NCBI GenBank assembly: GCA_017443965.1
Contig: JAFSXP010000079.1
Span: 1 to 39,208 of the forward strand
Source: Oscillospiraceae bacterium
GTDB lineage: Bacteria; Bacillota; Clostridia; Oscillospirales; Oscillospiraceae
Direction: 5' to 3'
Length of the DNA stretch: 39,208 bases
Shown here: positions 3,218 through 39,208 of the stretch, piece after piece
Layout: every line of letters begins with the position of its first letter
Numbering within the stretch: the first letter of the stretch is position 1
Notes under the pieces: model-generated
What the model was told of the DNA's origin: nothing
The model's database searches: none
What the model saw: only the letters and a program-made list of their open reading frames with translations
Made by a program: the position numbers and the translations under genes

Positions 3218-4480
<1,263 letters not shown>

Positions 4481-24739: not shown

Positions 24740-26140
24740 ATGACGGATCGGAAACGACTTTGCGCGGCAGCGCTTCTTTTTGCGCTGCTGTTTGCGCTCG
24801 CCGGCTGTGCGAAACGTCCCGTGCGTGTGCTGCCGCTGACAGACGGCGATATCCGCGTTTTTGAAACGACCGAGGACGGGCTTTCAACGCGCTCGTATGA
24901 GGACGCAAACGGCATCCGCCTCGACATGATGCGTCTGACGCACGGCGGTGTGGAAAACACATACTGCTTTTACAGCGAAACGGTCCCCGAAGGATCCGTG
25001 CTGCGCGTCTACGACGCCGTCTCCGAGGGCTGGACCACTGCGCCGGTCACGGCGGGCACTTACACGACAAGCTGCGCCGTGCTGGAGCTGCCGGACGGAG
25101 AAACGCGGTTTTTCTTCCTGCCGGTGACGTATCTTGCGCACGGGCACGACGTGCTGGAGCAGCAGACCTCCCTGCCCGGCTCGCTGGATGTGCGGCAGTC
25201 GGACGGCGGGTTTGCGATCACAGTAAACGGACAGACGGACGCGGACAGCTTCTGCACCGACTTTACAATGGTCACAGCGCCGATGCTGCTGCTGGATTGG
25301 AACAGCGACAACTGGGCGTCGGTCTGGGGACGATACACCGACGACGGCGAGGCAAAGTGGTGCTATACCGGCTACTACCGCTTCACATCGGATAACTACG
25401 ATCCGACCGGCGACAACTGCTACTATCGCTGTCCGGCGACGTTTCTCGCGCGCGAGATCCGCTGGCAGCTCGGAAAGAGCGTCGCCGCGCCGCTTGTGAC
25501 GCTTGCGATGCTGGACACCGTGATGCAGACACAGAATGCGGCGGGTTACTTCCCCACCATGCCGAAAAGCGGCTGGCTCTCCGCCGACTACGGGATCGGG
25601 TACGATTTCTATGACACGCGCTTCAACACCGATCTGATGGATGCGGTGCTGGAAGCTCGGGCGCAGCTCGACGGCAAGCTGTTTCAGCGCGAGCTGGAGC
25701 GATACGCGGCGTTCTATACGGAATTTGCAAACGCGCATCACACGGAGACGGAAAATGGTGGCTGGCTCGTGGCGGATTATTGGTCCGCGGACATGACCGC
25801 CGAGCCGCACACGTCGCTCAATCATCAGCTTGCCGAGTGTCTGCTGCTGTACCGTTTGCAGGACGACAGCGGCATCGGCGCGTACGGCGAGCTGGCAGAC
25901 AAGCTTCTGCAGGCAGTAGACGACACCGCCCCGGATTGGGTGAAGGACGATCACGATCTGCACTACTGCCGCTACGCGGACGGCAGTTACGGCGCGAAGG
26001 ACTATCCCGATCTGACGCAAAAGGATCTGGTCGCGCTGCGCAGGTATCTGATCCGCGAGCGCTACCGCACGGACACGGCGCTTGACGAGCTCATCCGCGA
26101 GAAGCGGATCTGGATGGATGCGAACGGCATTTCGTATTAA
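24740..26140 (+). CDS. Uncharacterised lipoprotein (466 aa), possibly a glycan-active alpha/alpha-toroid-like protein
   Basis: Signal peptide with lipobox MTDRKRLCAAALLFALLFALAG|C. Balanced composition rich in Y/W/D, consensus promoter upstream and terminator downstream. The competing antisense ORF (24884..26146) is Arg-rich and looks like an artefact. The functional guess is weak. Confidence 0.7.
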   Translation: MTDRKRLCAAALLFALLFALAGCAKRPVRVLPLTDGDIRVFETTEDGLSTRSYEDANGIRLDMMRLTHGGVENTYCFYSETVPEGSVLRVYDAVSEGWTTAPVTAGTYTTSCAVLELPDGETRFFFLPVTYLAHGHDVLEQQTSLPGSLDVRQSDGGFAITVNGQTDADSFCTDFTMVTAPMLLLDWNSDNWASVWGRYTDDGEAKWCYTGYYRFTSDNYDPTGDNCYYRCPATFLAREIRWQLGKSVAAPLVTLAMLDTVMQTQNAAGYFPTMPKSGWLSADYGIGYDFYDTRFNTDLMDAVLEARAQLDGKLFQRELERYAAFYTEFANAHHTETENGGWLVADYWSADMTAEPHTSLNHQLAECLLLYRLQDDSGIGAYGELADKLLQAVDDTAPDWVKDDHDLHYCRYADGSYGAKDYPDLTQKDLVALRRYLIRERYRTDTALDELIREKRIWMDANGISY

Positions 26141-26243: not shown

Positions 26244-29200
26244 TTACGTCAGCACGATACCGTAACCGCCCGCCATGTACTGGCGCAGCCGCAGCACGTC
26301 GCGCATGTTGATGCTGCCGTTGTGGTCGACGTCGCCATCTTCCTGATCGACCGTCACGCCGTAGCCGCCCGCCATGAATTGGCGCAGCCGCAGCACGTCG
26401 CGCATGTTGACGGTGCCGTTGCCGTCCACGTCGCCGGGCACGTAGATCCGGAACGTCGTCACGGCAGTCGCGCCGCCCGCCGTGATCGAGGCGGTCGCCG
26501 TGCCGAAAGCGGTGTTGTTCGCGTAGGCGATCTCAAGCTCGCCGCCGAGCCAGCCATCGGAATACTCGACCGTCGCGGCTGTGACCGGCTCGCCCGTGTA
26601 CCGCGAGCGCACCGCGCTGATCGTGGCGGAAGCCGTATGATCGCAGCGCGAGCAGATCTCGGTCAGCACAGCGCCCTCCGCGCTGTAGCTCAGATCGTGA
26701 CCGAGCGCGGCGATCGGCTTTGTCACGCGGCTGAGCTCCGCATGGCAGACCGAGCAGTAGACGACCTCGTCGTAGCTGCCCGCCGCCGTGCAGGTCGGGG
26801 CGATCTCATTCTCGCGCACCGCCGCGCCTGCCGTGTGTCCCATCGCCGGGATCGGCTTCGTCACGCGACTCAACTCCGCATGGCAGACCGAGCAGTAGAC
26901 GACCTCGTCGTAGCTGCCTGCCGCCGTACAGGTCGGAGCAGTCTCATTCTCACGTACCGCCGCATCCGCTGTGTGTCCCGTCGCCGGGATCTCGGCGTAC
27001 GTCGTATAGTCGCAGCGCGTACAGGTGTCATATGCCGCCCATCCGATCCCGGTGCAGGTCGGCACCTTTGCGTCGTGATGCACGAGATCATGCCCGAGCG
27101 CAGCCGTCTCATCCGCGACATAGCTGTCTCCGCAGCGGGTACAGGTGTAAGTCGTATAGCCCGTCGCGGTACAGGTCGGCGGCGTCACAACAGCCGCATA
27201 GTCGTGACCGAGCGCCTCGATCCGATACGGCGTACGGTCGCCGGAAGCGTTTTCGATGTAGACGATCACGTCTTCCGTGCAGTTGCCGACAGTCTCGCCG
27301 CCGAGCTCTTCGCCGCCGCTTGCCGCCGTCCACGCCGTGTAGCCGCTTTCGAGCGTCAGCGTTTCGGTGAGCGGATCGAACGAAGCGCCCTTCGCCTGCA
27401 GCGCGATCACCTGCACGTTGCCGGTGGCGTCGACCGTCACGCTGTCCGCGTAGGTCTGATACAGCGCCGCTTCCGCCGTGACGTCGTAACTGCCGACGTT
27501 CTTCAGGAACAGCACCTCGCCGTTGGCGTCCGTCTGCTGCGTCTCGCCGTCCAACGTGACGGCGGCATCGCAGATCGGCGTTTCCACGGCGTCCGTGATG
27601 CGCAGGTATGCCGAGAACATGCCGGAGCGATCCACGTCCAGACTGACGACTAACGGATCGTCAGTGAGCGCCGTGAACGAGAAACTGCCGTTTTTGCCCT
27701 TGTAGCCCACAGCGCTGACCGTCCAGCGGTACGTTCCGTACGGGATCGTCAGTTCGGCGACGCCGTCCGCGCCGCTGACGGCGCTGTGATCGCCGAACGT
27801 CACCGCGGCGCCGGGAACGCTGCCGCCGTTGCCGTTTACGATCACGCGCACCGTGCCGCCCGTCGCAAGCGCGACGCTCTCGGTCCTCGAAACGGCGCTG
27901 AAGGCCGCCGTGCCGCTCGCCGGCAGATAACCGTCCTTTGTCACGGTGTATTCGTATTCGCCCGGGAGCAGATTGATCGTCGCCTTGCCGTCCGCGCCGG
28001 TCGTTACGCTCTCGCCGTTGACCGTCACGGTCGCGTCCGCGGCGGCGACCCTGTCTGCCGTCACGGAGAAGACCGCTTCGATCTGCTCGCCGACGATGAC
28101 CGTGTAGGTGTTTCTTGTACGGCCGCCGCCGCTGACGGCTGTGATCACGACCGTGTGCGTGCCGTCGCCGACGCTGCCGCCGGCGGGAACCGCGCGGTAG
28201 CGTCCCAAAGACGTCTCGGTGACCGTCGCTGCGGTGCCGTCCACCGTTAGGACCGGAACTCCGTCAAGCGCGCTTTCGTCGTCGCTCACCGTGAAGATGA
28301 ACTCCTTCACGTCCGTGCCCAGCAGGATGTCGGTCTGCGGCGTGAGCAGTGTGACGACGGGGGCTGTGCTGTCACCGACCGCGGTCGTAACGGGAACGCG
28401 CTCGCTCTCCTCGCCGAGCTTTCCGTTACTGCCGATCACACGGGCATAAACGTAGCTGACGCCGTTATACTGCGGTATCAGGGCGGCGTCATAGCTGCCG
28501 TCCGCGTTCGCGGTGACGATCCCCTCAAACACGCCGGCGTCGCTCTCGTCTTCCGCCAGGAAGATCGCGACGGTCGCGTCGGGCTGCGCGGTACCCTGCA
28601 CGGCGATGGTGCCGTCCGAAGCGTTCCCGGCTTTCAACTCGGTCGCGCCGGGAACAGCGGTGTCAAGGCGGACCGTGACCGGTACGGTCAGCTCCCATCC
28701 GCCATTGACAGGCGTCCATTCATAGGCGCTGACGTCGGTATTGAAGCGATCCGCCACGATCCGGATTGTCACGCTGCCGGTGTAATCGCCGTCAGGCGTG
28801 TCCGCATCGGGATAGTAGTTCAGGATCATCTGTTTGCCGCCGCCCGCGTCGAGGGTGAAGACGCTTTCCGTCTCCGTGCCGTTTGCCGCAGTGATCGTCG
28901 GCGCAGGGATCGTCCGGTCTGCGCCGGTCAGCGCCGTGGCGCTGACGGTGACGTTCATGCCGGTGGTCTGTCCCGTCTCGTAGACCGACAGCGGCAGCGC
29001 CGCCTTCACGCCGCTTTCTCCGCTCTTGTCGCTGTACTCGCCCGCCAGTGCCGCGATATAGGGCATATCCAGCCCCGCCACAGCGCCGCAGTCCGGCGTA
29101 ACGACCGTGGAAAGATCAAAGGTCAGCTCGCTGTCGCCCGCGTTGACGACCGTGATCGTATAGTCGCCGGTGGCGTCGGGGATCAGGACAAAGTCGTCGT

Positions 29201-32200
29201 CACCGATGAGCGAAAGCTTCTGCTGCGTGCCTGCGCCGGTCACAGTCAGGCGGAGGTTCTCCTCGCCGGACAGTGCCGCCGCGAAGACGTAAAGCACAGA
29301 GCCGTCGGGTGCGGACACGGTCGCAGTCCGGCTCTCGCCTGCCGCCAGTGTGCCGCCGAGCGGCTGCGTCGCCATGGCGTTGGTCCTGAGGTACTCGACC
29401 GTCTTCTTCGAGCCCACGTTGAAATGCGTGACGTACGGTCCGAAGGTCGGCGCGATGGTCATGGTATCCGCTTCGGAGGCGGCGAAGGTGAACACGGCGG
29501 TATAGCCGCCCGCGTCGCGCAGGAGATTGATCGGTACGGCGATGCTCGCGGTGAAGTCCGCCGTTGCGCCGGCAGCAACAGTCTGAGTACCCATGCTCGC
29601 TGTGGTGACGAAGCCGAAGCTGTCGTAGATGTCCACAGTCGGGGCGACGGTGACAGTGCCCGTATGCCCGTTGTGGACGGAGATCGCCGCCGTGACGTAG
29701 TCGAAGTCCTTCGCATCGGTCACGAGATCGCCCACGTCTGCGGTCACGATCTCGATGGGCAGCTCGGGGTCGATCTTGCGCCAGCGTTCCATCGTCTCAA
29801 ATACGCTCTTGAGGTCGCCTGCGACAGCCGCCTCCTTGGAGAGCATGAGATTGGTCGTCGCAGCCAGATCTGCCGTCGCCTTGGAGAGGTTGAAGAGATT
29901 GCCGTCGTCCAGCGTATTCAGAGCGGTGGCGATCCCCTCGTTGCCGATGGAGAGCACGTTACCTGCCATGCCCAGCATCGTGCCGGTGACGACACCTGCA
30001 GGCGTAGCGGGCGCCACGCTCAGCGCCGTACCGATGAGGGACCAACTCGTCTCCGCCGCCTTGAGCGAATTGAGCTGATAACGGGAATCCACGTTCATCC
30101 AGCCCTCCGCCAGCAGGGAGTCGACGACCTGCTGCGCCTTGTAGAGCTCGCCGAGGGTGATCTCGTTCGTGGTCAGATCGTATCCGCCGCCGGAATACGT
30201 CCACAGGCTGCGGTAGCGCCCGACGCGGCTTGCCGGGATCGGCTCGCCGTTGCTCTGCCGCACCATGGCGCTGATGGAAGCGTTGAGTCCCTTCACGTAA
30301 TCCAGCAGCTGCGTGGAGGGATAGTAGCCGGTCAGCATATCCGGGTCGTTCAGGTAGCGGTCGATCATGCCGCTGATCTCGGTCAGCGTCGCGTTCGCCC
30401 CATTCTGGATGTTGTAGACGTTCGTAGCGGCACCGAGAGATGCCTCGGTCGCCGCGTCGAGCGTCAGGCGATAATCGCTCTTTCCGCCTGCGATCGTCAG
30501 CTTGCTGTAAGCCGCCTTGAACTTTGTCTCGTCGATCAGCTTCCGCAGTGAGAGCTTAACGATCGCCGTGGCAACGCAGCGGTACTTATCGGTCTTGCTG
30601 ACGCACTTGCCGTACTCGGCGCTGAAATCGGAAGTGAACTGTGTCTGATTGAACCACTCGTTGGCGGACGGATCGTTTCCGACCACGGTACGGACGATCT
30701 CGCCCGCAAGTTGTCCGTCGCTGATCTCGCCGCGCTCGAGCTTGCCCAGCACCGCGCCCACGGTGTTGACCATCTCGGGCGTCGAAGCGTTCACGCTCTT
30801 CAGGTGCGCGGCGTCGACGACCTGGAAGTCGCTCGCCAGCCACTTGAACGGGATCAGATAGAAGTTTGTCACCGTTTCGTTCCATGCGTTTCTGTTCTTG
30901 CGCAGGGCATCGAGTTTGTCCTTCGCGGAGCCGTTGGGGTCGTAACCGATGCTGGTAAAGATCTGCCTGGCTGCCGTGGAAAGCGCCTTGGCGTCGCTCG
31001 TGTAAGCTTCCTCACCGCTGAGAAGGTCGCTCATGCCATCCGCAGACTTCTGCATCGTGTCGACCTTTTCCTCCAGATCCGCCAGCCTTGTGAGCTGCGC
31101 AAGCGCGGCGACGACGTTGTTGATCTGCGGCGCGAGCATACTCTCCGCCTTCGCGAGATCCAGGTAAGCCGCCTCTTCCAGCTTGTAACGGTTCATCTGC
31201 GCCATCAGCCCGTCGCCGGAAAGCTCGTCGCGCTGCTTCGCCAGCTCCTCCAGCATGGGCTCGCGCAGCGCATGCGCTTCCTTCGCCAGCTCCGCCGCCT
31301 TCTCCATGTTGACGCGTGCGAGCTTGATCTTCTCGGCGCGAACGGCGGCGTCGGTGGTTTCCATGGCGGTGTTGACGTCATTGCAAGCCTGCGCCAGCAG
31401 CTCTGCCGCGGCGCTGATCTTGGCGCGGTAGGCAGAGGCGACGGCGCCGAATTTGAACATCGTCTGATTGACGTCGTCAACGTTCAGCAGCTCTTCCACA
31501 GTTCCCTGCCAGTAGGGAATGTCCTTGGGCACGAAGTTCACGATCCAGTCCATATCCTGCGAAAGGACTTCCATGGCTTTGCTGAAGTTGCTGCGATACG
31601 CATCGAGCTGTCCGAATTTGGTGGGCTCGAGTTTCATCTCACTGACGCCCTTGCCGAGATCGGAAAGGCTCGACCGCAGATCGACGTAGCCCTTGAGCGT
31701 CATGAACAGATTCACCAGCTTGCCGATGCCGGAATAGACTTCGCCGATGGAGATCGCCCGCTTGAGATTGGACGTGTAATCGTAGATGTCGCCGAGCGAA
31801 CGTCCCAGCTCGGACGCAGTCTTGTCCGTGAGCAGCGTCAGGTTGGTGCTCAGCTCTCCGAGCTCGGTCTGGATGCTCCGCAGGTTGTCTGCGGTGCGCA
31901 TCGTATTCATCTGCTCAAGCTGCATCGGTGCAACGATGACGTCCGCGCCGAGCGAGGACTTGATCGGCAGCGACGGCAACGCCGCCAGCTTGCCGAGCGA
32001 GAGCTGCTTCGCGTTGCTCATCTCGCCGATGATCGCAAGCTCGTAGGAGATCACGGCGGTATCGCCCGCGTGCAGTACGCTGATCTCCACGCGATCCTGC
32101 TCCGCAGTGACGCGGTTGCTCATCATCACGACGCCCTTCGTGCTGCTCACGCCGACGACGCGCATCTCCATGCCGTCCACGGCGGGGATGGTCGGGACGC

Positions 32201-35200
32201 CGATCGTGACGTTGTTGGCGTCGCCCGCGCCGAGATTTGTCACGGTCGCGGTCAGGAAGTACTTCCCGGACGCATCCTGCAGGAGATCGTAACTGACATA
32301 CAGCTTCGGCTTTTCCCTGACCTCGTATTCGCGCGCGGAGGTCGTGTAGCTGTATTCCTTGCCGTCGATCTCAAACGTCATCTCAAAGCGTGCGTAGACC
32401 TTACCGGAAGCGCTCTGCTTCGTGACATACTGCATCAGCGACTCGTCGTATTCTTCGATCCACCCGTAGTCGCGGATCAGCCGGTCGAGGCGGAAGCGGC
32501 AAGTGACCTCTGTCTCCTCGCCCGGTTCGATGCGTCCGCCGATGGCGTCGCCGTCCACGGTCATGCTGCCGCCCTTGCAGGTGATGTTGACGTTCGGCGT
32601 CAGCGGCTCGCTGCCCTCTTCGGGTCCGTCCGTCAGAACGAGGCGCAGCCTGACGTTCTCCATCGGGTGCATCTTCGACGGGTTCTTGAGCGAGAACTTC
32701 AGCGAAGTGATCTGTCCCTCATAGCCCACGGAGCCGGCAAAGCCGAAATCGACGGACACGTCCTCGTTGTCCTCGGGCAGATCGGGTACGCTCTGCTGGA
32801 GGCGGTTCAGGAAGCCGGTGCTGTATTTCATCTTGCTGACCGTGCCGGAGGCGGGATCGAACGCGGGATCGACCTGCACCTTTTGCTCGATGTCGGGATG
32901 GACGTCGTAGATGCTGCCTGCCTTGTAGCCGGTGTAGTTGCCGTCCGCGTCATAGGGATCGGTCTCGCCGGCGCTGACGTAGTAATCGGGCGCGACGTAG
33001 TGCACGCGCACGGGCACACGGGTCTCGATCAGTTCGCCCGTCTCGGCGTTGGTGCCGGAGGCGAGAATCACGAAATCGAACCAATACGGCTTTTCGCCGT
33101 AGAAGACCGGCACGCGGTCAGACGGCGGCGAAGACGTGCCGTCCTCCGCGACCGCAGTCCGGTAAATACCGGTATTGGTCGCGGCGTCGAAGCTCACAAG
33201 CGTGAGCGAGCCGACAGAAGCAGGATCGTTGGCAGCCAGATATGCCTTGCGCTGCGCCTCCGTCACGCCATCCGGGAAGCGAACGGCATACTCACCGGCA
33301 GTCTCCGTCGCGCTGACGTCGGCGATCAAGAAGAAGCTGTCGATATCCAGACTCCACACGACATCGAACACGCCGTTCGGCTTGACGGTGCCGATGTTTT
33401 TCACGGGGCTGAGCGATCCGCCCGTGCTGATCGACACCGCGCCGGTTGGGATATCGGTATCGAGATCGGTGATACGGACCGTCACGCCGCTGACGCTTTC
33501 CGCCGCGTGCTCGGGGTTCATGAACGACACTTTGCCGATCATTTTGCCGCTCTGATAGAAGAACTCCTTCTCATCGCCGACGAAGTTGGGCACGAGCGAC
33601 GTCTGATTGCCGTCCGCAAGCAGCTTCGCCTTGAACGTGAGGTTGTTGTAATTCGGCGAAGCGGCGGTGGCGCTGCGAAGCTCTTCCATGGTCTCCTCGT
33701 CCACGCTGAACGTGAACAGGCTGCGCTGCAGCGTCACAATGCGCGGCGTCCTGTCAATGAGCGCAGCGATGGCGACGGTCGTCTCCAGCGTGCTGTGATC
33801 GGCGGCCGTGACGGTGAGGCTGTAATCGCCCGCGGGGATATTCTCGAACGTAACAAGACCGTTTTCATCGCTTGTCTGTCCGAACACGACGGGATCGAGC
33901 TGCTCGTCGAGTCCGACAAGCGTCATCTCGGCGTTTTGCAGTAGCGTGTTGTCCTGATTGCGGATCTCGAACACGGCGGTGCCGATCATGCCCGCGCCGA
34001 CCGAAACCTTGATCGGTACGGTCACAGGCTCGCTGAGCGACGGCGAGGTGATGGTCACCGTGCCGTCATACACGCCAGTCAGGCAGGAGTCGGTAGGCGA
34101 CGCCGTCGCCACGATGGACATGCTGCCCTGCGGGTCGCGGATCGAATAACCGCGGCTGACGGGCTGGATGACCGCCTCGGGATCCACGCCTGTCAGCAGC
34201 ACGAACGGCAGATCGGTCGAAGCCGATACGCCGGTGATCGGCGCTGTGCCGATGTTGGTCAGACGGATGACCGCGCTTGCCGCCGCGCCCTGCCGCAGAG
34301 ACATGGTGATGCTCGGCGTCTGCAGACCTTCGCTTTCCGCCTCGCCGCTGCCGATCACGTTCACACGCGCTCTTGCGACCGCACGCTCACAGGTGATCTT
34401 CACCGTCTTCGTGCCGCCGCCAGCGTTCACCGTGACGTCGTAGTCGTTCGGCGCGAGCGTATTCGACGCTGTGAAGCGGATCGTGACCGCCGCGCCGCTT
34501 TCCGCGGCAAGCGTGCCGTTCGGCGCCGAAACGATCTCGTAGGTCAGCCCGTCGGGCAGACCGCTGACCGTGACGCCGCCGATTTCCGTGGCGGTGACGC
34601 CCGGATTGTTGAGATAGCCCGCCAGCACGGCGTCGCTGCCCTGCACGACAGTCAAGCGGTCATCCACGTCCACGCTGACGCCGTCCACGTAGAACGTCAC
34701 GCGGTCGGAGCGCCGTTCGACGGCGCTGTAGGTCGCCGCCGCGCGGAGCGCGAATGCGCCGCCGACGCCCTCGGGCAGCTCGATCGCAGCGCTGTAGCTG
34801 CCGTCCGACGCGGTCACGGCATCGGCGCTGAAGCGTTCGCTGCCGACGGCTGTGACCGTCACCGCGGCGCCCGCGATGCCGGAGCCGTCCGTGTTACTGA
34901 CAAAGCCGGTCACAAGGACAGCGTCGCCGAGGCGGTAGCTCTGTTCGTTTGCATTATCCAGCGTCACGCGGAAGTCGTCGGCGACGGTAAACGCCGATTC
35001 GACGCTCTTCGTAACGCCGTCCTTTTCGGCGGTGAGACTAAGCGTATAAGAGCCGGTCTGCGTCATCACGGCGCTGCCGGTATACGTGCCCGTCGAGGCG
35101 TCGTAGCGCATCTCGACCGCGGTATCTCCGCCGCCCGCCTTGGTGATGACCGCGCTGAAGCTGTCCGCCTCGACCGGCAGATACGAAGCGTCGCTGGATG

Positions 35201-38200
35201 CGACCGACGCCGTGATCTCCACCGTGTCGCCGACGCAGTAGGAAGCGCCGTCCGTGCCGCCCGTCAGGATCAGACCGGAAGCGATCTCGATCGTCCTGAC
35301 CGCGCTCGCCGCCGAGCGATCCGCAAGGACCAGCTTGCTTTCGGCGTCCGCGTAGACGCGCATCGTGCAGCTCCCGCTGACCTGCGCCGTCCAGTCGATC
35401 GTGACCGGGGCGCTCTCGCCAGCCGCAAGCGCGCCGCACTCCGCGACGCCCACACGACTGCCGCCGACGTAGAGCACGACCTTGAACGGCTGCTCGATGG
35501 CGCGGTCGCCGCTGTTGCGAATGGTGACGACCGTTCTTGCGCTGTCGCCGTATTTTGCCGCGCCGGTGGTCGTGATATCGGTAATCTCGAGCTTACTGCT
35601 GCTGACCTTGATCGGCGCGGCAAAGCGCGTCGTTGCGATATTGTTGGTCTCGGAACGCTCGGCAAGGACCTCGCCCGCGTCGGCGACCGCAGTGATCGAC
35701 GAAACGGAGATCGCGGGATCCTTCCAGACGAAGCTGACCAGCGTGCTTTCGCCGCAGCGCAGCGCCGTCACTTCCGTGCTGCCGATGAAGCGGCTGTCGG
35801 CGTAGAAGCTGAGACGCGTCGCCTTTGTCGCGTCGCCCGCGCCGATGTTCTTCACGGTGGCGTACAGGACGATGTTCTGTCCCGGTGCAAGCGTCGCCGC
35901 GGTCATGCCGGTGTCGATCCCCGTCACCTCAAGGTCGGGATACAGGATCGTCAGCGACGAGTAGACCGCCGCCGCAGTATTGTTCTCCTCGTCCATCTCA
36001 ACAACGCTGGAGATCGGGCCGTCGGCAACGAACTTCAGCACATGACCGCCGCCGTTTTCCGGCTTCCACGTGAAGCTCACGTTTTCGCCGGCGCCTGCCG
36101 CCAGACCGTCGATCAAACGGGAGACGACAAGTTTGTCGTTATCGTACAGCAGGACCTTGAACGCCGGCGCTGCCGCCGTTCCGTTATTCCTGACGGTCGC
36201 GCTGACCGTGATCGGCGCGCCCCAGGAGACCGTATCGCCGTCGGTGACGGCTGCACTGAAGCCGGACACCGCCAGATCGGCAAAGTCCGTCTCGCTTCCG
36301 CTGAGCACGGTATCAAAGCGGTTGTTGTCGTAGTTGACTTCGCGGATATTGCGGCCGATGTCGTTGACGACGGCGCTGAGCTTCTGCGCGCCCGCCTCCG
36401 CCTTGAAATCAATGGACGCCGTCGCAGTCGAGCCGACCTCGAGGTCGCCGTTCATCTCGGCAAAGCCGATGTACTTGTCGTTGAGATAGAAGCCGACCAG
36501 ATAATACGCGTCCGCGCCCGTCGGCGTCAGACCGCCGGTGTTCGGCAGCGTGCCGTTCTGGATCGTCGCAGTCGCCGTGACCGTATCGCCCTTGTTCGGG
36601 CTGTCATTGCTGAACGCGATGTTGTTGATGAACAGATCGGGGCAGTCGGCGTTGACCGTGACCTGGATCTCCGAGAAGTAGTTGTACTCCGTCCTGCTGG
36701 ACGCGATGATCTCGTCCGTGACGGGATCGCGCAGATACGGCTCCGTGGACGACAGATTGCTGTCGGTCACGTAGAGCGACGCACGGTAAGTGCCCGCGTG
36801 CTGATACACGTGGGTGGGCGTCGGACCGTAGCCGCTTTCGCCGTCGCCGAAGTCCCAGACAAAGCTGCCGATATAGCCGTCTGTGTCATAAGAGCGGCTG
36901 CCGTCAAAGCGGACCTGCTGCCCCATGACTGCGTCGGTGATATCCGCGCCGGCGTGGCTGTACGGCAGATCGTTGACGGTCGCCTTGCCGGTTGCGGTGC
37001 TGATTAGGCTGCCGCCGTTGTCGTGAAGCTCCGCCGTGATCGTATAGGTCGTGCCGCGTGCCGGCGTCCAGTCGGTGCAGTAGACCGCCTGCACGGCATA
37101 CGGTATGATGTTTGCAAACGCGATCTCCGCGCTGCGGAACTCCGGCGTATCGCTGTCTGTCGGCGTCGCGGTGAACACGACGTACCCGCTGAGATTCTCC
37201 TTGCCGCGGTTATCGATCGTGGCGCGCAGCGTGATATCGCGGTCGCCGACGTCGGGATAGACACCGGTGTCATAGTACGCCGTTTGCTTGAGATACCAGC
37301 CGGTCGTGCCCTTGCCGAGCTGCACGGCGCCCGGGGTGTCGGGATCCGCCGCGACGTAGGTAAAGCGCGAATAATCCACGGCGCTGATGAACGCGGCGCT
37401 GCCGAACTCGACCGTGTAGTAACCGTCGGGATAACTGCGCGTCAGATCGTCGGCATAGCGGATGGGGATCTCGCTGACGATGTAGATGTAGCCGTAATCC
37501 TTCCAGTAGTTGCCCGGCGAGAGCGTCACGGCGTCGGAGCCGTCGGCGCGCACGCCGAACTTGACCGCGGCGATGCTGCCGCAGCCTTCGGGCTCGGGGA
37601 TCATAACGACCTGATAGCGCGCGGATACGTCTGTCTTCGGGCCGGCGGCAACGACCGTCATGGCGCTGCCGTCATAATCGGAAGTCACGCGGACGCTGTC
37701 CGGCACGTAGATGGGAACGCGGAGTCCGGTATCCAGATTCAGCAGATAGTCGCAGAAGCCGGTATCGCCCTCGTTGACGAGCGCGAGTCCTTTCTCTCCT
37801 TCCGATCCGGCGAGGACGCCGTCCTTGCCGATGATGCTGGTGTTGGCGGCGACGATCAGCGGGTTGAGTTGGACGCCCTTGTAATCCTTGTGCGTCAGCG
37901 TCGCCTTGAATTCGCGGAACTCGCCCTCATAGGGATCGCCCTCGGTGATCGGCATATTCCAGCGCACGATCCAGTAGCCGCTGACCTTGCCGGGCACAAG
38001 ATCCCACTCGCCCGTCTCTTCGTTATATTCGCGGGTGGCGGCGGGAACGTTGCCGAAGGACAGTTTGAATTCGCTGCCGCTGCTGCTGCCGAACGAACTG
38101 TCGAGGATCTCAAAGTCGGTGATCATGCCGCTCTGGTTGCTCTCGACCTTGAGCTGGCCGGAATTGATGTTCAGGTTCATCGCTTCGCCGTAGCCGTGGT

Positions 38201-39208
38201 TCTCCACGGTGACGCCGAGGCGGAACGGCGTGTTGGAGAGGATGTTGTGCGGGACGTAGTAGTTGAGCGTCAGCTTCGGCTGGGGCAGGATGGTAATGGG
38301 AACGCCCTCCGTCTCCGTCTGCACCAGCTGTCCGTTGACGTAGTAGGACACCAGCGCGGAGGCGTAGTACACGCGCCCCTCCGGCTCCGTGCCGCCGAGG
38401 TCCGCGCCCGGAATGATCTGCCAGGTGGCGGTCAGTGCGCCGCCCGAGGGCAGGCTGCCGTTGCCGTCTACGTCGGAGATGCCGCTCACGCCCGTGGCGA
38501 TGATGAAGTTCCTGCCGCTCACGTCCGTGCCGTTCTCGTCCTTGACCAGAACGTCCACGCGCAGGTTGTTCAGCGCGAATTCGGGGTAGCCGTTGGTGAC
38601 CTTCAGCGTCGCGTCAAACGCCTGGCGCTCCAGCGTCGCGGTCTGGTTGAGGCTGAGCTTGACGATCTCGTAGACGGAGCCGCCGTCCTGCGCGAGCTCC
38701 TTCTCCCTGTCGATTTCCTCCGGCGCGATGTAACGCAGCTCCTCGATCTGCCCCTCGGGCAGGAGGACGGTCTCCTCCCTGACCTCATTGTTGTTCTCCG
38801 GCATACGCACCTCAAGCTTCACGGGCTTGTCGCTCGGATTGTAGAGGGGCAGGCTGCCGGTGATCTTCGGTGCGGGGTCGACGGGCATGCCCGTGTCGGG
38901 GTCGAAGGACACATATGAGCCTTCCAGCCGGATGTAGTTCTTTGCGTTGCCCGCGGCGTTCACGCCGTAGGGCAGGTTGTAGACGCCGGGCTGCACGAGC
39001 AGCTTGATGCGCGCGCTGCTCTGCGCGGGGATCTCGCCGATGTAGCCGCCGCCCACGATGCTGATGCCCATGTCGGAGGCGTTCTCGCGCACGACGGACG
39101 CGACCACGTCCGTAATGGCGATCAGACCGGTGTTGACCACGTTCGCCTCGACATAGACCGGCTCGGTCACGTTTTTCGGGATGTTGACCCACGGCGGGTT
39201 GAAGCCGA
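26244..39208 (-). CDS. Giant dockerin-terminated multidomain extracellular protein (>4,320 aa; 5' end beyond window)
   Basis: One uninterrupted frame. The track's first residue is a GTG at 39170, but the frame stays open to the window edge (GFNPPWVNIPKN|VTEPVYVEANVV...). The protein holds PKD, CARDB-like and carboxypeptidase-regulatory-like beta-sandwich modules, a long helical insert, Cys-rich repeats and a C-terminal dockerin. A terminator follows the stop. Confidence 0.9.
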   Translation of the reverse strand, partial: GFNPPWVNIPKNVTEPVYVEANVVNTGLIAITDVVASVVRENASDMGISIVGGGYIGEIPAQSSARIKLLVQPGVYNLPYGVNAAGNAKNYIRLEGSYVSFDPDTGMPVDPAPKITGSLPLYNPSDKPVKLEVRMPENNNEVREETVLLPEGQIEELRYIAPEEIDREKELAQDGGSVYEIVKLSLNQTATLERQAFDATLKVTNGYPEFALNNLRVDVLVKDENGTDVSGRNFIIATGVSGISDVDGNGSLPSGGALTATWQIIPGADLGGTEPEGRVYYASALVSYYVNGQLVQTETEGVPITILPQPKLTLNYYVPHNILSNTPFRLGVTVENHGYGEAMNLNINSGQLKVESNQSGMITDFEILDSSFGSSSGSEFKLSFGNVPAATREYNEETGEWDLVPGKVSGYWIVRWNMPITEGDPYEGEFREFKATLTHKDYKGVQLNPLIVAANTSIIGKDGVLAGSEGEKGLALVNEGDTGFCDYLLNLDTGLRVPIYVPDSVRVTSDYDGSAMTVVAAGPKTDVSARYQVVMIPEPEGCGSIAAVKFGVRADGSDAVTLSPGNYWKDYGYIYIVSEIPIRYADDLTRSYPDGYYTVEFGSAAFISAVDYSRFTYVAADPDTPGAVQLGKGTTGWYLKQTAYYDTGVYPDVGDRDITLRATIDNRGKENLSGYVVFTATPTDSDTPEFRSAEIAFANIIPYAVQAVYCTDWTPARGTTYTITAELHDNGGSLISTATGKATVNDLPYSHAGADITDAVMGQQVRFDGSRSYDTDGYIGSFVWDFGDGESGYGPTPTHVYQHAGTYRASLYVTDSNLSSTEPYLRDPVTDEIIASSRTEYNYFSEIQVTVNADCPDLFINNIAFSNDSPNKGDTVTATATIQNGTLPNTGGLTPTGADAYYLVGFYLNDKYIGFAEMNGDLEVGSTATASIDFKAEAGAQKLSAVVNDIGRNIREVNYDNNRFDTVLSGSETDFADLAVSGFSAAVTDGDTVSWGAPITVSATVRNNGTAAAPAFKVLLYDNDKLVVSRLIDGLAAGAGENVSFTWKPENGGGHVLKFVADGPISSVVEMDEENNTAAAVYSSLTILYPDLEVTGIDTGMTAATLAPGQNIVLYATVKNIGAGDATKATRLSFYADSRFIGSTEVTALRCGESTLVSFVWKDPAISVSSITAVADAGEVLAERSETNNIATTRFAAPIKVSSSKLEITDITTTGAAKYGDSARTVVTIRNSGDRAIEQPFKVVLYVGGSRVGVAECGALAAGESAPVTIDWTAQVSGSCTMRVYADAESKLVLADRSAASAVRTIEIASGLILTGGTDGASYCVGDTVEITASVASSDASYLPVEADSFSAVITKAGGGDTAVEMRYDASTGTYTGSAVMTQTGSYTLSLTAEKDGVTKSVESAFTVADDFRVTLDNANEQSYRLGDAVLVTGFVSNTDGSGIAGAAVTVTAVGSERFSADAVTASDGSYSAAIELPEGVGGAFALRAAATYSAVERRSDRVTFYVDGVSVDVDDRLTVVQGSDAVLAGYLNNPGVTATEIGGVTVSGLPDGLTYEIVSAPNGTLAAESGAAVTIRFTASNTLAPNDYDVTVNAGGGTKTVKITCERAVARARVNVIGSGEAESEGLQTPSITMSLRQGAAASAVIRLTNIGTAPITGVSASTDLPFVLLTGVDPEAVIQPVSRGYSIRDPQGSMSIVATASPTDSCLTGVYDGTVTITSPSLSEPVTVPIKVSVGAGMIGTAVFEIRNQDNTLLQNAEMTLVGLDEQLDPVVFGQTSDENGLVTFENIPAGDYSLTVTAADHSTLETTVAIAALIDRTPRIVTLQRSLFTFSVDEETMEELRSATAASPNYNNLTFKAKLLADGNQTSLVPNFVGDEKEFFYQSGKMIGKVSFMNPEHAAESVSGVTVRITDLDTDIPTGAVSISTGGSLSPVKNIGTVKPNGVFDVVWSLDIDSFFLIADVSATETAGEYAVRFPDGVTEAQRKAYLAANDPASVGSLTLVSFDAATNTGIYRTAVAEDGTSSPPSDRVPVFYGEKPYWFDFVILASGTNAETGELIETRVPVRVHYVAPDYYVSAGETDPYDADGNYTGYKAGSIYDVHPDIEQKVQVDPAFDPASGTVSKMKYSTGFLNRLQQSVPDLPEDNEDVSVDFGFAGSVGYEGQITSLKFSLKNPSKMHPMENVRLRLVLTDGPEEGSEPLTPNVNITCKGGSMTVDGDAIGGRIEPGEETEVTCRFRLDRLIRDYGWIEEYDESLMQYVTKQSASGKVYARFEMTFEIDGKEYSYTTSAREYEVREKPKLYVSYDLLQDASGKYFLTATVTNLGAGDANNVTIGVPTIPAVDGMEMRVVGVSSTKGVVMMSNRVTAEQDRVEISVLHAGDTAVISYELAIIGEMSNAKQLSLGKLAALPSLPIKSSLGADVIVAPMQLEQMNTMRTADNLRSIQTELGELSTNLTLLTDKTASELGRSLGDIYDYTSNLKRAISIGEVYSGIGKLVNLFMTLKGYVDLRSSLSDLGKGVSEMKLEPTKFGQLDAYRSNFSKAMEVLSQDMDWIVNFVPKDIPYWQGTVEELLNVDDVNQTMFKFGAVASAYRAKISAAAELLAQACNDVNTAMETTDAAVRAEKIKLARVNMEKAAELAKEAHALREPMLEELAKQRDELSGDGLMAQMNRYKLEEAAYLDLAKAESMLAPQINNVVAALAQLTRLADLEEKVDTMQKSADGMSDLLSGEEAYTSDAKALSTAARQIFTSIGYDPNGSAKDKLDALRKNRNAWNETVTNFYLIPFKWLASDFQVVDAAHLKSVNASTPEMVNTVGAVLGKLERGEISDGQLAGEIVRTVVGNDPSANEWFNQTQFTSDFSAEYGKCVSKTDKYRCVATAIVKLSLRKLIDETKFKAAYSKLTIAGGKSDYRLTLDAATEASLGAATNVYNIQNGANATLTEISGMIDRYLNDPDMLTGYYPSTQLLDYVKGLNASISAMVRQSNGEPIPASRVGRYRSLWTYSGGGYDLTTNEITLGELYKAQQVVDSLLAEGWMNVDSRYQLNSLKAAETSWSLIGTALSVAPATPAGVVTGTMLGMAGNVLSIGNEGIATALNTLDDGNLFNLSKATADLAATTNLMLSKEAAVAGDLKSVFETMERWRKIDPELPIEIVTADVGDLVTDAKDFDYVTAAISVHNGHTGTVTVAPTVDIYDSFGFVTTASMGTQTVAAGATADFTASIAVPINLLRDAGGYTAVFTFAASEADTMTIAPTFGPYVTHFNVGSKKTVEYLRTNAMATQPLGGTLAAGESRTATVSAPDGSVLYVFAAALSGEENLRLTVTGAGTQQKLSLIGDDDFVLIPDATGDYTITVVNAGDSELTFDLSTVVTPDCGAVAGLDMPYIAALAGEYSDKSGESGVKAALPLSVYETGQTTGMNVTVSATALTGADRTIPAPTITAANGTETESVFTLDAGGGKQMILNYYPDADTPDGDYTGSVTIRIVADRFNTDVSAYEWTPVNGGWELTVPVTVRLDTAVPGATELKAGNASDGTIAVQGTAQPDATVAIFLAEDESDAGVFEGIVTANADGSYDAALIPQYNGVSYVYARVIGSNGKLGEESERVPVTTAVGDSTAPVVTLLTPQTDILLGTDVKEFIFTVSDDESALDGVPVLTVDGTAATVTETSLGRYRAVPAGGSVGDGTHTVVITAVSGGGRTRNTYTVIVGEQIEAVFSVTADRVAAADATVTVNGESVTTGADGKATINLLPGEYEYTVTKDGYLPASGTAAFSAVSRTESVALATGGTVRVIVNGNGGSVPGAAVTFGDHSAVSGADGVAELTIPYGTYRWTVSAVGYKGKNGSFSFTALTDDPLVVSLDVDRSGMFSAYLRITDAVETPICDAAVTLDGETQQTDANGEVLFLKNVGSYDVTAEAALYQTYADSVTVDATGNVQVIALQAKGASFDPLTETLTLESGYTAWTAASGGEELGGETVGNCTEDVIVYIENASGDRTPYRIEALGHDYAAVVTPPTCTATGYTTYTCTRCGDSYVADETAALGHDLVHHDAKVPTCTGIGWAAYDTCTRCDYTTYAEIPATGHTADAAVRENETAPTCTAAGSYDEVVYCSVCHAELSRVTKPIPAMGHTAGAAVRENEIAPTCTAAGSYDEVVYCSVCHAELSRVTKPIAALGHDLSYSAEGAVLTEICSRCDHTASATISAVRSRYTGEPVTAATVEYSDGWLGGELEIAYANNTAFGTATASITAGGATAVTTFRIYVPGDVDGNGTVNMRDVLRLRQFMAGGYGVTVDQEDGDVDHNGSINMRDVLRLRQYMAGGYGIVLT
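26247..26445 (-). other. Type-I dockerin module (C-terminus of the giant protein)
   Basis: Two duplicated Ca-binding loop-helix segments: GDVDGNGTVNMRDVLRLRQFMAG and GDVDHNGSINMRDVLRLRQYMAG. The two DNA segments are also nearly identical, about 99 nt apart. Confidence 0.85.
26640..27225 (-). repeat. Five tandem Cys-rich mini-domains (GH-x7-12-PTCTxxG-x5-8-C-x2-C), two of them a near-identical 138-bp duplication
   Basis: The five units are ALGHDYAAVVTPPTCTATGYTTYTCTRCG, ALGHDLVHHDAKVPTCTGIGWAAYDTCTRCD, ATGHTADAAVRENETAPTCTAAGSYDEVVYCSVCH, AMGHTAGAAVRENEIAPTCTAAGSYDEVVYCSVCH and ALGHDLSYSAEGAVLTEICSRCDH. DNA copies at about 26712-26849 and 26850-26987 differ only by scattered transitions. Confidence 0.8.
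27395..28092 (-). other. Three consecutive carboxypeptidase-regulatory-like (CarboxypepD_reg / Cna-B-like) beta-sandwich modules
   Basis: The pattern V.V.....A.V......T...G...L.L..G.Y.Y.V...GY recurs three times, for example ATVTVNGESVTTGADGKATINLLPGEYEYTVTKDGY. A fourth copy lies at about 33775-33990 (ENGLVTFENIPAGDYSLTVTAADH). Confidence 0.55.
29760..31925 (-). other. Alpha-helical insert of about 720 aa (track residues about 2415-3137) within the giant protein
   Basis: The composition switches abruptly from a G/T/V/D-rich beta-type sequence to an A/L/E/K/Q-rich sequence with heptad-like stretches (AAELLAQACNDVNTAMETTDAAVRAEKIKLARVNMEKAAELAKEAHALREPMLEELAKQRDEL). Secondary structure is inferred from composition only. 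Confidence 0.5.
35290..36650 (-). repeat. Four tandem CARDB-like domains
   Basis: Each unit of about 110 aa starts with (P/A)DL.(V/I) and contains V.(N/I).N.G...A.. Three end in (E/D).NN: PDLFINNIAF...NYDNNRFD, ADLAVSGFSA...EMDEENNTAA and PDLEVTGIDT...ERSETNNIAT. The fourth begins KLEITDITTT. Confidence 0.7.
36740..36965 (-). other. PKD domain
   Basis: VRFDGSRSYDTDGYIGSFVWDFGDGESGYGPTPTHVYQHAGTYRASLYVTDSN contains the canonical WDFGDG and HxY..xGxY.V.L.V.D PKD signature. Confidence 0.8.

Follow-up and report, generated by a model that had tools for sequence, protein, structure and literature searches.

An undescribed all-alpha module within the Ig-like array of a giant dockerin-bearing surface protein from Clostridia

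Introduction

What does a helical segment of about 720 amino acids (aa) do in the middle of a giant surface protein whose remainder appears to be built from immunoglobulin (Ig)-like beta sandwiches? The question is raised by contig JAFSXP010000079.1 of a rumen-type Oscillospiraceae bacterium (assembly GCA_017443965.1), analysed here as one stretch of 39,208 nucleotides (the window), whose minus strand encodes such a protein in a single open reading frame (ORF). A reading made from the letters of the DNA (the sequence-only reading) had picked out the helical module, described in it heptad-like sequence and a glycine-zipper hydrophobic segment, and compared its layout with that of alpha-helical pore-forming toxins, with a rigid spacer or oligomerisation stalk as the fallback. 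Here we show that the module is a real, conserved, non-repetitive all-alpha domain, and that it represents a previously undescribed, very rare and lineage-restricted family with no Pfam, NCBIfam or PDB relative. It belongs to a known kind, namely single domains free of repeats that are set into giant surface proteins made of Ig repeats, whereas kinship with pore-forming toxins has the rank of a lead rather than a result.

Results

A sharply bounded helical domain

The boundaries of the module agree within a few bases with those first proposed (Table 1, where residues of the giant protein are counted from window position 39170). The flip in composition that had drawn attention to it is also borne out: compared with the rest of the protein, the module gives a chi2 of 112 (p 3e-15) and is the most deviant of all 721-aa windows in the protein. 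It is enriched in Leu (1.8-fold), Lys (2.3-fold), Met (2.8-fold) and Gln (1.7-fold), as well as in Asn and Trp, and depleted in Val (0.6-fold), Thr (0.7-fold), Gly (0.7-fold) and Pro (0.5-fold). Its three cysteines lie in the contexts QACND, GKCVS and YRCVA.

AlphaFold2 was run without an alignment, with a predicted local distance difference test score (pLDDT) of 41.9, and with 11 sequences, with a pLDDT of 62.7 and a predicted template-modelling score (pTM) of 0.37. Both runs predict helices and one short beta-hairpin only, as expected for the helical module that had been claimed, although the single-sequence model is of no use for three-dimensional arrangement, and even the better model is too weak to decide between a toxin and a spacer. 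The edges are sharp in the prediction, the first helix beginning at module residue 2 and the last stopping at residue 718, and because these all-alpha boundaries match the switch in composition, they were counted in favour of one real all-alpha domain. In the 11-sequence model, very long helices span module residues 2-79, 135-189, 193-234, 240-301, 592-637 and 643-718, and about a dozen short helices lie between residues 306 and 555. The predicted beta-hairpin, YRSLWTYSGGGYDLTT, where the pLDDT is 33-51, overlaps the best-conserved motif.

The module is not built from repeats, since an all-against-all hhalign comparison of seven blocks gave a best probability of 2.3%, a result by which spectrin-like repeats were rejected. 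Nor is the sequence heptad-like in the sense first proposed. The best heptad window scores 0.60, below the 95th percentile of the shuffle maximum (0.63), by which a canonical coiled coil was rejected as well, and 8% of windows pass the 1% heptad threshold, which indicates amphipathic helices rather than a canonical coiled coil.

Table 1. Features of the giant surface-protein gene and its helical module in the window
Feature	Window position	Strand	Description
Giant surface-protein ORF	26244..39208	-	At least 4,320 aa; N-terminus beyond window end
All-alpha, non-repetitive insertion module	29763..31925	-	721 aa, aa 2416-3136; MQLEQMNT...WRKIDPE
Conserved N-terminal long helix	31656..31925	-	Module residues 1-90; L..N...L.DKTA.ELGRSL.D.YDY
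Variable helical middle ('head')	30426..31655	-	Module residues 91-500; fast-evolving, length-variable
Conserved C-terminal subdomain	29763..30425	-	Module residues 501-721; 19 invariant columns across 9 divergent sequences
Predicted short beta-hairpin YRSLWTYSGGGYDLTT	30159..30206	-	Module residues 574-589; sole non-helical element
Uncharged stretch TSWSLIGTALSVAPATPAGVVTGTMLGMAGNVLSIGN	29940..30050	-	37 residues, aa 3041-3077; rich in G/A/S/T/V/L/M
Junction motif WRK[IV]DP[EP], alpha-to-beta boundary	29763..29783	-	W215, K217, D219, P220 invariant in A3
Type I dockerin, C-terminus	26274..26438	-	aa 4245-4299; PF00404, E 2.7e-10, 40.7 bits vs cut-off 22.9

A conserved core around a variable middle

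Orthologs of the giant protein are 53-61% identical over about 4,000 aa. When six of them were aligned over that length, the module was 41% identical, compared with 63% for its N-terminal and 52% for its C-terminal flank, and identity was lowest (20%) at aa 2501-2600; no other part of the protein's conserved body is conserved as little as the module. Its anatomy was taken from a 15-sequence alignment, in which the conserved core falls into two parts, the first ~90 and the last ~220 residues. The N-terminal part is a single long helix (residues 2-79, pLDDT up to 84) that directly follows the beta strand ending in VIVAP. The region in between, made of long helical hairpins (residues 135-301) followed by the short helices, is only 20-38% identical among orthologs and varies in length, from ~410 aa here to ~197 aa in P0014 and P0015, which are the most distant of the relatives. 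Despite the halved middle, these two keep the N-terminal helix, the C-terminal subdomain and the same flanking beta domains, so that the domain measures ~720 aa in the window protein and ~510 aa in the distant relatives.

The C-terminal subdomain, to which the phmmer matches in P0014 and P0015 are confined, carries the motifs YYPS.QLL.YVKGLN, GRYRSLWTY and LAEGY.NVA.RY.LN ahead of the last, uncharged hairpin, and NL..A.ADL..TTNLMLSKE and SVFETME.WRKIDPE after it. Its closing motif, WRK[IV]DP, is near-invariant even in relatives at 19% identity. We note that this motif holds an Asp-Pro bond; such bonds are acid-labile and serve as a self-cleavage site in some secreted proteins.

An uncharged hairpin at the tip of the last helical pair

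The uncharged stretch (module residues 626-662) is the longest uncharged run in the whole protein. The sequence-only reading had placed here an uncharged, hydrophobic segment of about 40 residues; the absence of charge holds over 37 residues, and the hydrophobicity was overstated, for a Kyte-Doolittle (KD) value of 0.91 and a best 19-residue Hessa sum of +5.0 kcal/mol (Wimley-White interfacial value -1.0) describe a stretch free of charge and rich in small residues, not one of strong hydrophobicity. It is predicted to form two helical arms on either side of a turn, APATP (residues 638-642, pLDDT below 50), and in this form is the tip of the last long helical hairpin, made of helices 592-637 and 643-718.

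A run of at least 37 uncharged residues arises in 0.8% of shuffles of the module and in 17% of shuffles of the whole protein, and it is the recurring aligned position, rather than the length in one sequence, that marks the stretch as non-random. Of 14 relatives with 19-44% identity, 12 have an uncharged run of 25-35 residues that aligns with this site; in P0002 and P0005, which make up the rest, a single Asp in the centre of the stretch, at the predicted turn, divides it. Both observations fit a two-armed hairpin. The sequence of the stretch drifts among relatives while its uncharged, small-residue character stays. As judged from these alignments, the conserved position and character reflect selection on character, not chance.

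The glycine zipper did not withstand counting. Small-xxx-small pairs number 88 against 81 expected, and GxxxG 13 against 8.2, so that a literal glycine zipper, with a spacing no commoner than composition predicts, was rejected. The sole small-residue motif kept in register among close orthologs is a loose S-phi-x-G-T-x-phi-G in the first arm of the hairpin.

For calibration we used two real hairpins, those of ClyA of E. coli K-12 and of colicin E1 of plasmid ColE1. The ClyA tongue, AYAGAAAGVVAGPFGLIISYSIAAGVV, is 27 aa long, with a KD of 1.61, a best Hessa sum of +3.2 and a Wimley-White interfacial value of -2.1, and is similar in its marginal hydrophobicity to the window stretch, SWSLIGTALSVAPATPAGVVTGTMLGMAGNVLSIG. 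The colicin E1 hairpin (35 aa, KD 1.85, Hessa -0.6, Wimley-White -8.2) is far more hydrophobic. Across the family, the hairpins are 25-37 aa long, with a KD of 0.9-1.46, best Hessa sums of +2.9 to +7.2 and Wimley-White interfacial values that mostly lie between -1.9 and +0.4, the one outlier being P0014 (-6.6). The chemistry of the hairpin therefore resembles that of the ClyA tongue and not that of a colicin, and by these hydrophobicity scales the hairpin is not a Sec stop-transfer segment.

Comparison with known families

No HlyE, Bacillus_HBL, Colicin, other toxin or recurrent family was found by Pfam at E ≤ 10 in the window module or ten of its relatives, and the module has no match in NCBIfam and no family in PHROGs at E ≤ 1. 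Searches of the PDB by sequence and by profile returned no toxin, the best matches (E 0.03-0.065) being unrelated helical proteins, and hhalign of the 15-sequence profile gave probabilities of 0.2% against E. coli ClyA and 0.3% against colicin E1. A Foldseek comparison of the better model with the PDB and BFVD, the check proposed for ClyA-type toxins, gave nothing at E ≤ 1e-3, a negative that is not decisive for a module known only from a low-confidence model. Its top matches, none of them significant, were SMC/MukB, dynein, vinculin and tape-measure proteins, and AhlB (6h2f, 6grj) came at rank 26 with E 1.2-1.8 and TM 0.10/0.20. As regards the pore-forming layout first proposed, helices of 42-78 residues are predicted, with the uncharged hairpin at the turn between the last two of them, in a tertiary arrangement that is unreliable. 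Every homology and fold test of pore-forming families failed.

With the ClyA/HlyE family (including Hbl, Nhe, AhlB and YaxAB/XaxAB), the module shares a bundle that is predicted to be elongated and made of very long helices, a single uncharged hairpin (~27-37 residues, G/A-rich, with a Pro/Gly turn), and a conserved core of ~300 residues, which is about the size of ClyA. However, it has no detectable sequence, profile or fold similarity to these proteins. Both of its ends are joined to the rest of a protein that exceeds 4,300 aa, whereas ClyA-type toxins are free proteins of 300-400 aa; a variable helical region of 200-410 aa comes in addition; a partner-gene operon is lacking; and the hairpin lies near the C-terminal end of the module rather than in its middle. 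Colicin pore domains (E1, A and Ia) likewise have an uncharged hairpin of 35-40 residues between amphipathic helices, but their hairpin differs in hydrophobicity as described above, and they are compact ten-helix globules of ~200 aa, whereas the helices flanking the hairpin of the module have predicted lengths of 46 and 76 residues. Phage tape-measure proteins, at the top of the viral fold library matches, have long helices and Gly/Ala-rich uncharged segments as well; their matches are not significant (E ≥ 0.015, TM ~0.1), and the context of the module is chromosomal, not that of a prophage.

Several further identities were rejected. A thioester domain (TED) of the alpha2-macroglobulin/complement type is contradicted by the lack of a Cys in a CxEQ motif and of a TED or A2M match in Pfam. 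An (alpha/alpha)-toroid glycoside hydrolase or lyase does not agree with helices of 42-78 residues, with a short-helix middle that is the least conserved part, or with the absence of a CAZy-type Pfam match. A phage tape measure was dismissed on the absence of a PHROGs family, on BFVD matches with E no better than 0.015 and on the chromosomal housekeeping genes nearby, and the signalling hairpin of a methyl-accepting chemotaxis protein on the absence of an MCPsignal match in Pfam.

Relatives and distribution

An exhaustive HMMER scan of 1.84 billion cluster representatives returned only 16 relatives, all of them inside very large Clostridia proteins or fragments thereof; five span the module end to end at 37-43% identity. 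A word-indexed protein search found no relatives with the module or the 11-sequence alignment, and two fragments only with the C-terminal alignment; the word index evidently misses the family. When the species genomes of GTDB were scanned with the C-terminal alignment, eight loci were found, all in metagenome-assembled genomes (MAGs) of Clostridia/Oscillospiraceae from the rumen or ruminant gut (buffalo, deer, goat and sheep), and a metagenome scan added six further loci. The module-bearing proteins are 4,300-6,900 aa long and carry one module each, the second copy suggested in P0013 having been rejected as a spurious 2.6-bit match.

Named members, annotated merely as 'PKD domain-containing protein' or 'hypothetical protein', include proteins of 5,082 aa from an Oscillospiraceae MAG and 4,897 aa from a Syntrophomonadaceae MAG, and a protein from a Clostridiaceae MAG. 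Another, TYQ18185.1, comes from a cultured cellulolytic alkaliphile, Acetivibrio alkalicellulosi. This protein is complete (6,894 aa, in a record flagged UNVERIFIED_CONTAM), with a Sec-type signal peptide, fn3, PKD, CARDB, Big and InlB-B-repeat domains, and the module at roughly residues 5546-6060. The gene is monocistronic and has unrelated neighbours on either side. The protein is not mentioned in a paper on the A. alkalicellulosi cellulosome, and a literature search found no description of this protein family, nor of a natural ClyA-like domain joined to a dockerin.

The closest ortholog of the window protein, L004 (CAMKFK010000006.1), has an in-frame stop at nt ~737-740 that divides the giant gene. 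The piece upstream of the stop is homologous to the N-terminal parts of other orthologs, and the locus may be a pseudogene, be genuinely split or reflect an error in the assembly.

Host protein and genomic setting

The frame of the giant ORF is open up to the window end, and the protein is longer than the 4,320 aa seen. Above the curated cut-off, Pfam finds in it CARDB (four copies), PKD, CarboxypepD_reg-like domains (five copies), SpaA-like and HYDIN-type Ig domains, with MG2 matches elsewhere in the protein falling below the cut-off. These beta-sandwich families and the C-terminal type I dockerin (PF00404), by which the protein counts as a cellulosome-type dockerin-bearing one, are all that Pfam detects over its whole length. 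The dockerin, CARDB and PKD domains named by the sequence-only reading are thereby confirmed, and its description of the protein as otherwise all-beta agrees with the Pfam matches and the composition, which are the whole of its basis. Neither the window protein nor the complete A. alkalicellulosi homolog has an enzymatic or toxin domain that Pfam detects. Around the giant ORF lie chromosomal genes for housekeeping and for sugar uptake, among them Lon, ClpX, trigger factor, RNase HII, an ABC sugar transporter and GH38, and the locus is not a mobile element.

The N-proximal beta region of the giant protein (aa 1-500, window ~37670-39208, minus strand) shows 85-90% identity to those orthologs that extend over it, compared with 40-65% for the remainder of the protein, in MAGs that span a GC content of 44% to 65%. 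It has no match in Pfam and, from its conservation, may be the functional region under the strongest constraint in this protein. Just ahead of the dockerin (aa ~3990-4170, window ~26650-27200, minus strand) lie Cys-rich repeats of the patterns HD....V..PTCT..G...Y.C..CG and CSVCH. Two of the copies are almost the same (...AAVRENE.APTCTAAGSYDEVVYCSVCHAELSRVTKPI...); they resemble zinc-ribbon-type repeats and have no Pfam match. The anchoring tail is not conserved, identity between the C-termini of orthologs and window 26244-27200 being ~12-22% past aa ~4000. By eye, dockerin-like tails with DVNGDG repeats are seen in the orthologs L003, L006 and L007 and other tail sequences in L001, L002, L004 and L008, and Pfam finds no dockerin in P0015/the A. 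alkalicellulosi protein.

The adjoining gene (window 24740-26140), on the plus strand and so opposite to the giant gene, encodes 466 aa with no Pfam family and is also called in an independent assembly (ENA ERZ27256819). Across the module region, the plus strand holds antisense ORFs at 29424-30551 (375 aa) and 30711-33944 (1,077 aa), which are typical for a high-GC coding strand; conservation favours the minus-strand frame.

Discussion

Our preferred, and tentative, reading of the module is that it acts as a non-lytic projecting contact or recognition head. Giant repeat adhesins have unique, non-repeat ligand-binding regions, as in RTX adhesins, and helical ones occur in Gram-positive serine-rich-repeat adhesins. 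Like these, the module is one unique domain that interrupts the Ig-like array of a secreted, surface-anchored giant protein and diverges faster than the scaffold; unlike them, it has no known homology to described adhesin domains, is all-alpha and, at 721 aa, unusually large, and has a conserved uncharged hairpin. The A. alkalicellulosi homolog, with its Sec signal peptide, only Ig-like domains and no enzyme or toxin domain, fits an adhesin-type protein, and in such a protein the single non-repeat domain would fit as the functional site.

Since the first (78 residues) and last (76 residues) helices are equally long in the model, are conserved together and each abut an Ig-like domain, they would probably pair into a stalk of ~11 nm. 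With this pairing the two ends of the module would meet, so that the domain would stand out laterally from the Ig chain, with the variable helical head and the uncharged hairpin at the distal end of the stalk. The hairpin would be either a shallow, non-lytic element that touches a hydrophobic surface or membrane, or a small-residue hairpin tightly packed and hidden against the head. An exposed contact domain would agree with divergence faster than that of the scaffold, but this pace does not show such a role.

Several points weigh against a contact head. The arrangement of the helices comes from the low-confidence 11-sequence model, in which the pLDDT of the hairpin tip is below 50. Faster evolution can equally mean relaxed constraint on a spacer. 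The strongest conservation lies elsewhere, in aa 1-500, and the main functional site may be a different one. Finally, 25-37 residues without charge are unusual for a soluble, exposed pair of helices, so that a membrane role is possible.

A passive element, that is, a rigid helical spacer, a hinge or a self-association stalk in which the small residues would allow tight antiparallel (alacoil-like) packing, would account for the elongated helices of the model, for top Foldseek matches that are generic long-helix proteins, for conservation below that of the Ig-like scaffold, for a middle part that tolerates halving, and for a small-xxx-small spacing no higher than composition predicts. To this extent the spacer or stalk proposed as a fallback is partly supported. 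It is nevertheless doubtful, because the module lacks repeats and has a weak heptad signal, because its specific polar and aromatic motifs (DKTA.ELGRS, YYPS, GRYRSLWTY and WRKIDP) are unneeded by a spacer, and because charge is wholly excluded over 25-37 residues among sequences at 19-44% identity, which goes beyond the needs of a turn. The proteins moreover already have dozens of Ig-like spacer domains. Quite another role for the uncharged segment, that of a mid-chain anchor in the cytoplasmic membrane of the producer, would have a re-entrant hairpin leave SecYEG sideways with both beta arms outside. It is true that the protein has no other long uncharged segment, and that some orthologs have no recognisable C-terminal anchor or dockerin, but we hold such an anchor to be very improbable: the best Hessa sums are positive in all relatives, in contrast to the negative sum of the colicin hairpin, which makes stop-transfer unlikely, the arms are too short for transmembrane helices, and the window protein already has a dockerin.

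The membrane of another cell is the target in the remaining alternative, a tethered alpha-helical membrane-insertion or pore-forming module of the ClyA/AhlB/YaxB type, whose hairpin would be packed on the helical head at rest and insert on contact with a target membrane, several giant proteins perhaps assembling one pore. The predicted long helices with an uncharged hairpin at the tip of a helical hairpin agree with this, as does the apparent selection for an uncharged, small-residue hairpin despite sequence drift; the hairpin is close to the real ClyA tongue in length, in its fraction of G/A/S/T and in its Wimley-White value, and its positive Hessa sums are compatible with Sec export without arrest in the membrane of the producer. 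In toxins of the AhlB/YaxB type both termini stay off the membrane, and by analogy tethers at both ends would be compatible in principle. We nonetheless consider a pore-forming module unlikely. None of the 11 members has a Pfam toxin family, the sequence and profile searches were negative, with hhalign probabilities well below 1%, and in Foldseek AhlB did no better than SMC, dynein or tape-measure proteins. The window hairpin is less hydrophobic than the ClyA tongue, far less than that of colicin E1, and its arms (~12 and ~18 residues) are too short for bilayer-spanning helices. In addition, partner-component genes are absent, and the gene of A. alkalicellulosi is monocistronic; the module is mid-chain, ~1,170 aa from the dockerin end; and the free N-terminal helix required by a ClyA-type mechanism is not available. 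More speculative, and distinctly improbable, is a new, structurally independent class of tethered membrane-insertion or pore-forming domain in a cellulosome-anchored giant adhesin. With it, a rumen Clostridia cell that touches a neighbouring bacterium, protozoan or fungus would breach or fuse with the neighbour's membrane, the hairpin playing the part of a ClyA tongue or a viral fusion peptide.

If the module is a contact head only, it is one more orphan domain, yet it would define a new family, the mark of one rare lineage among the giant surface proteins of fibre-degrading Clostridia, and would give a handle on the binding targets of proteins of 4,000-7,000 aa. With the complete homolog of cultured A. 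alkalicellulosi (TYQ18185.1, with the flag on its record noted above), the membrane question can be taken to the bench. Should the hairpin prove to enter membranes, the module would be the first alpha-helical membrane-attack module in a dockerin-anchored Ig-repeat adhesin, and would suggest that contact-dependent antagonism or attachment takes a hitherto undescribed route in the rumen.

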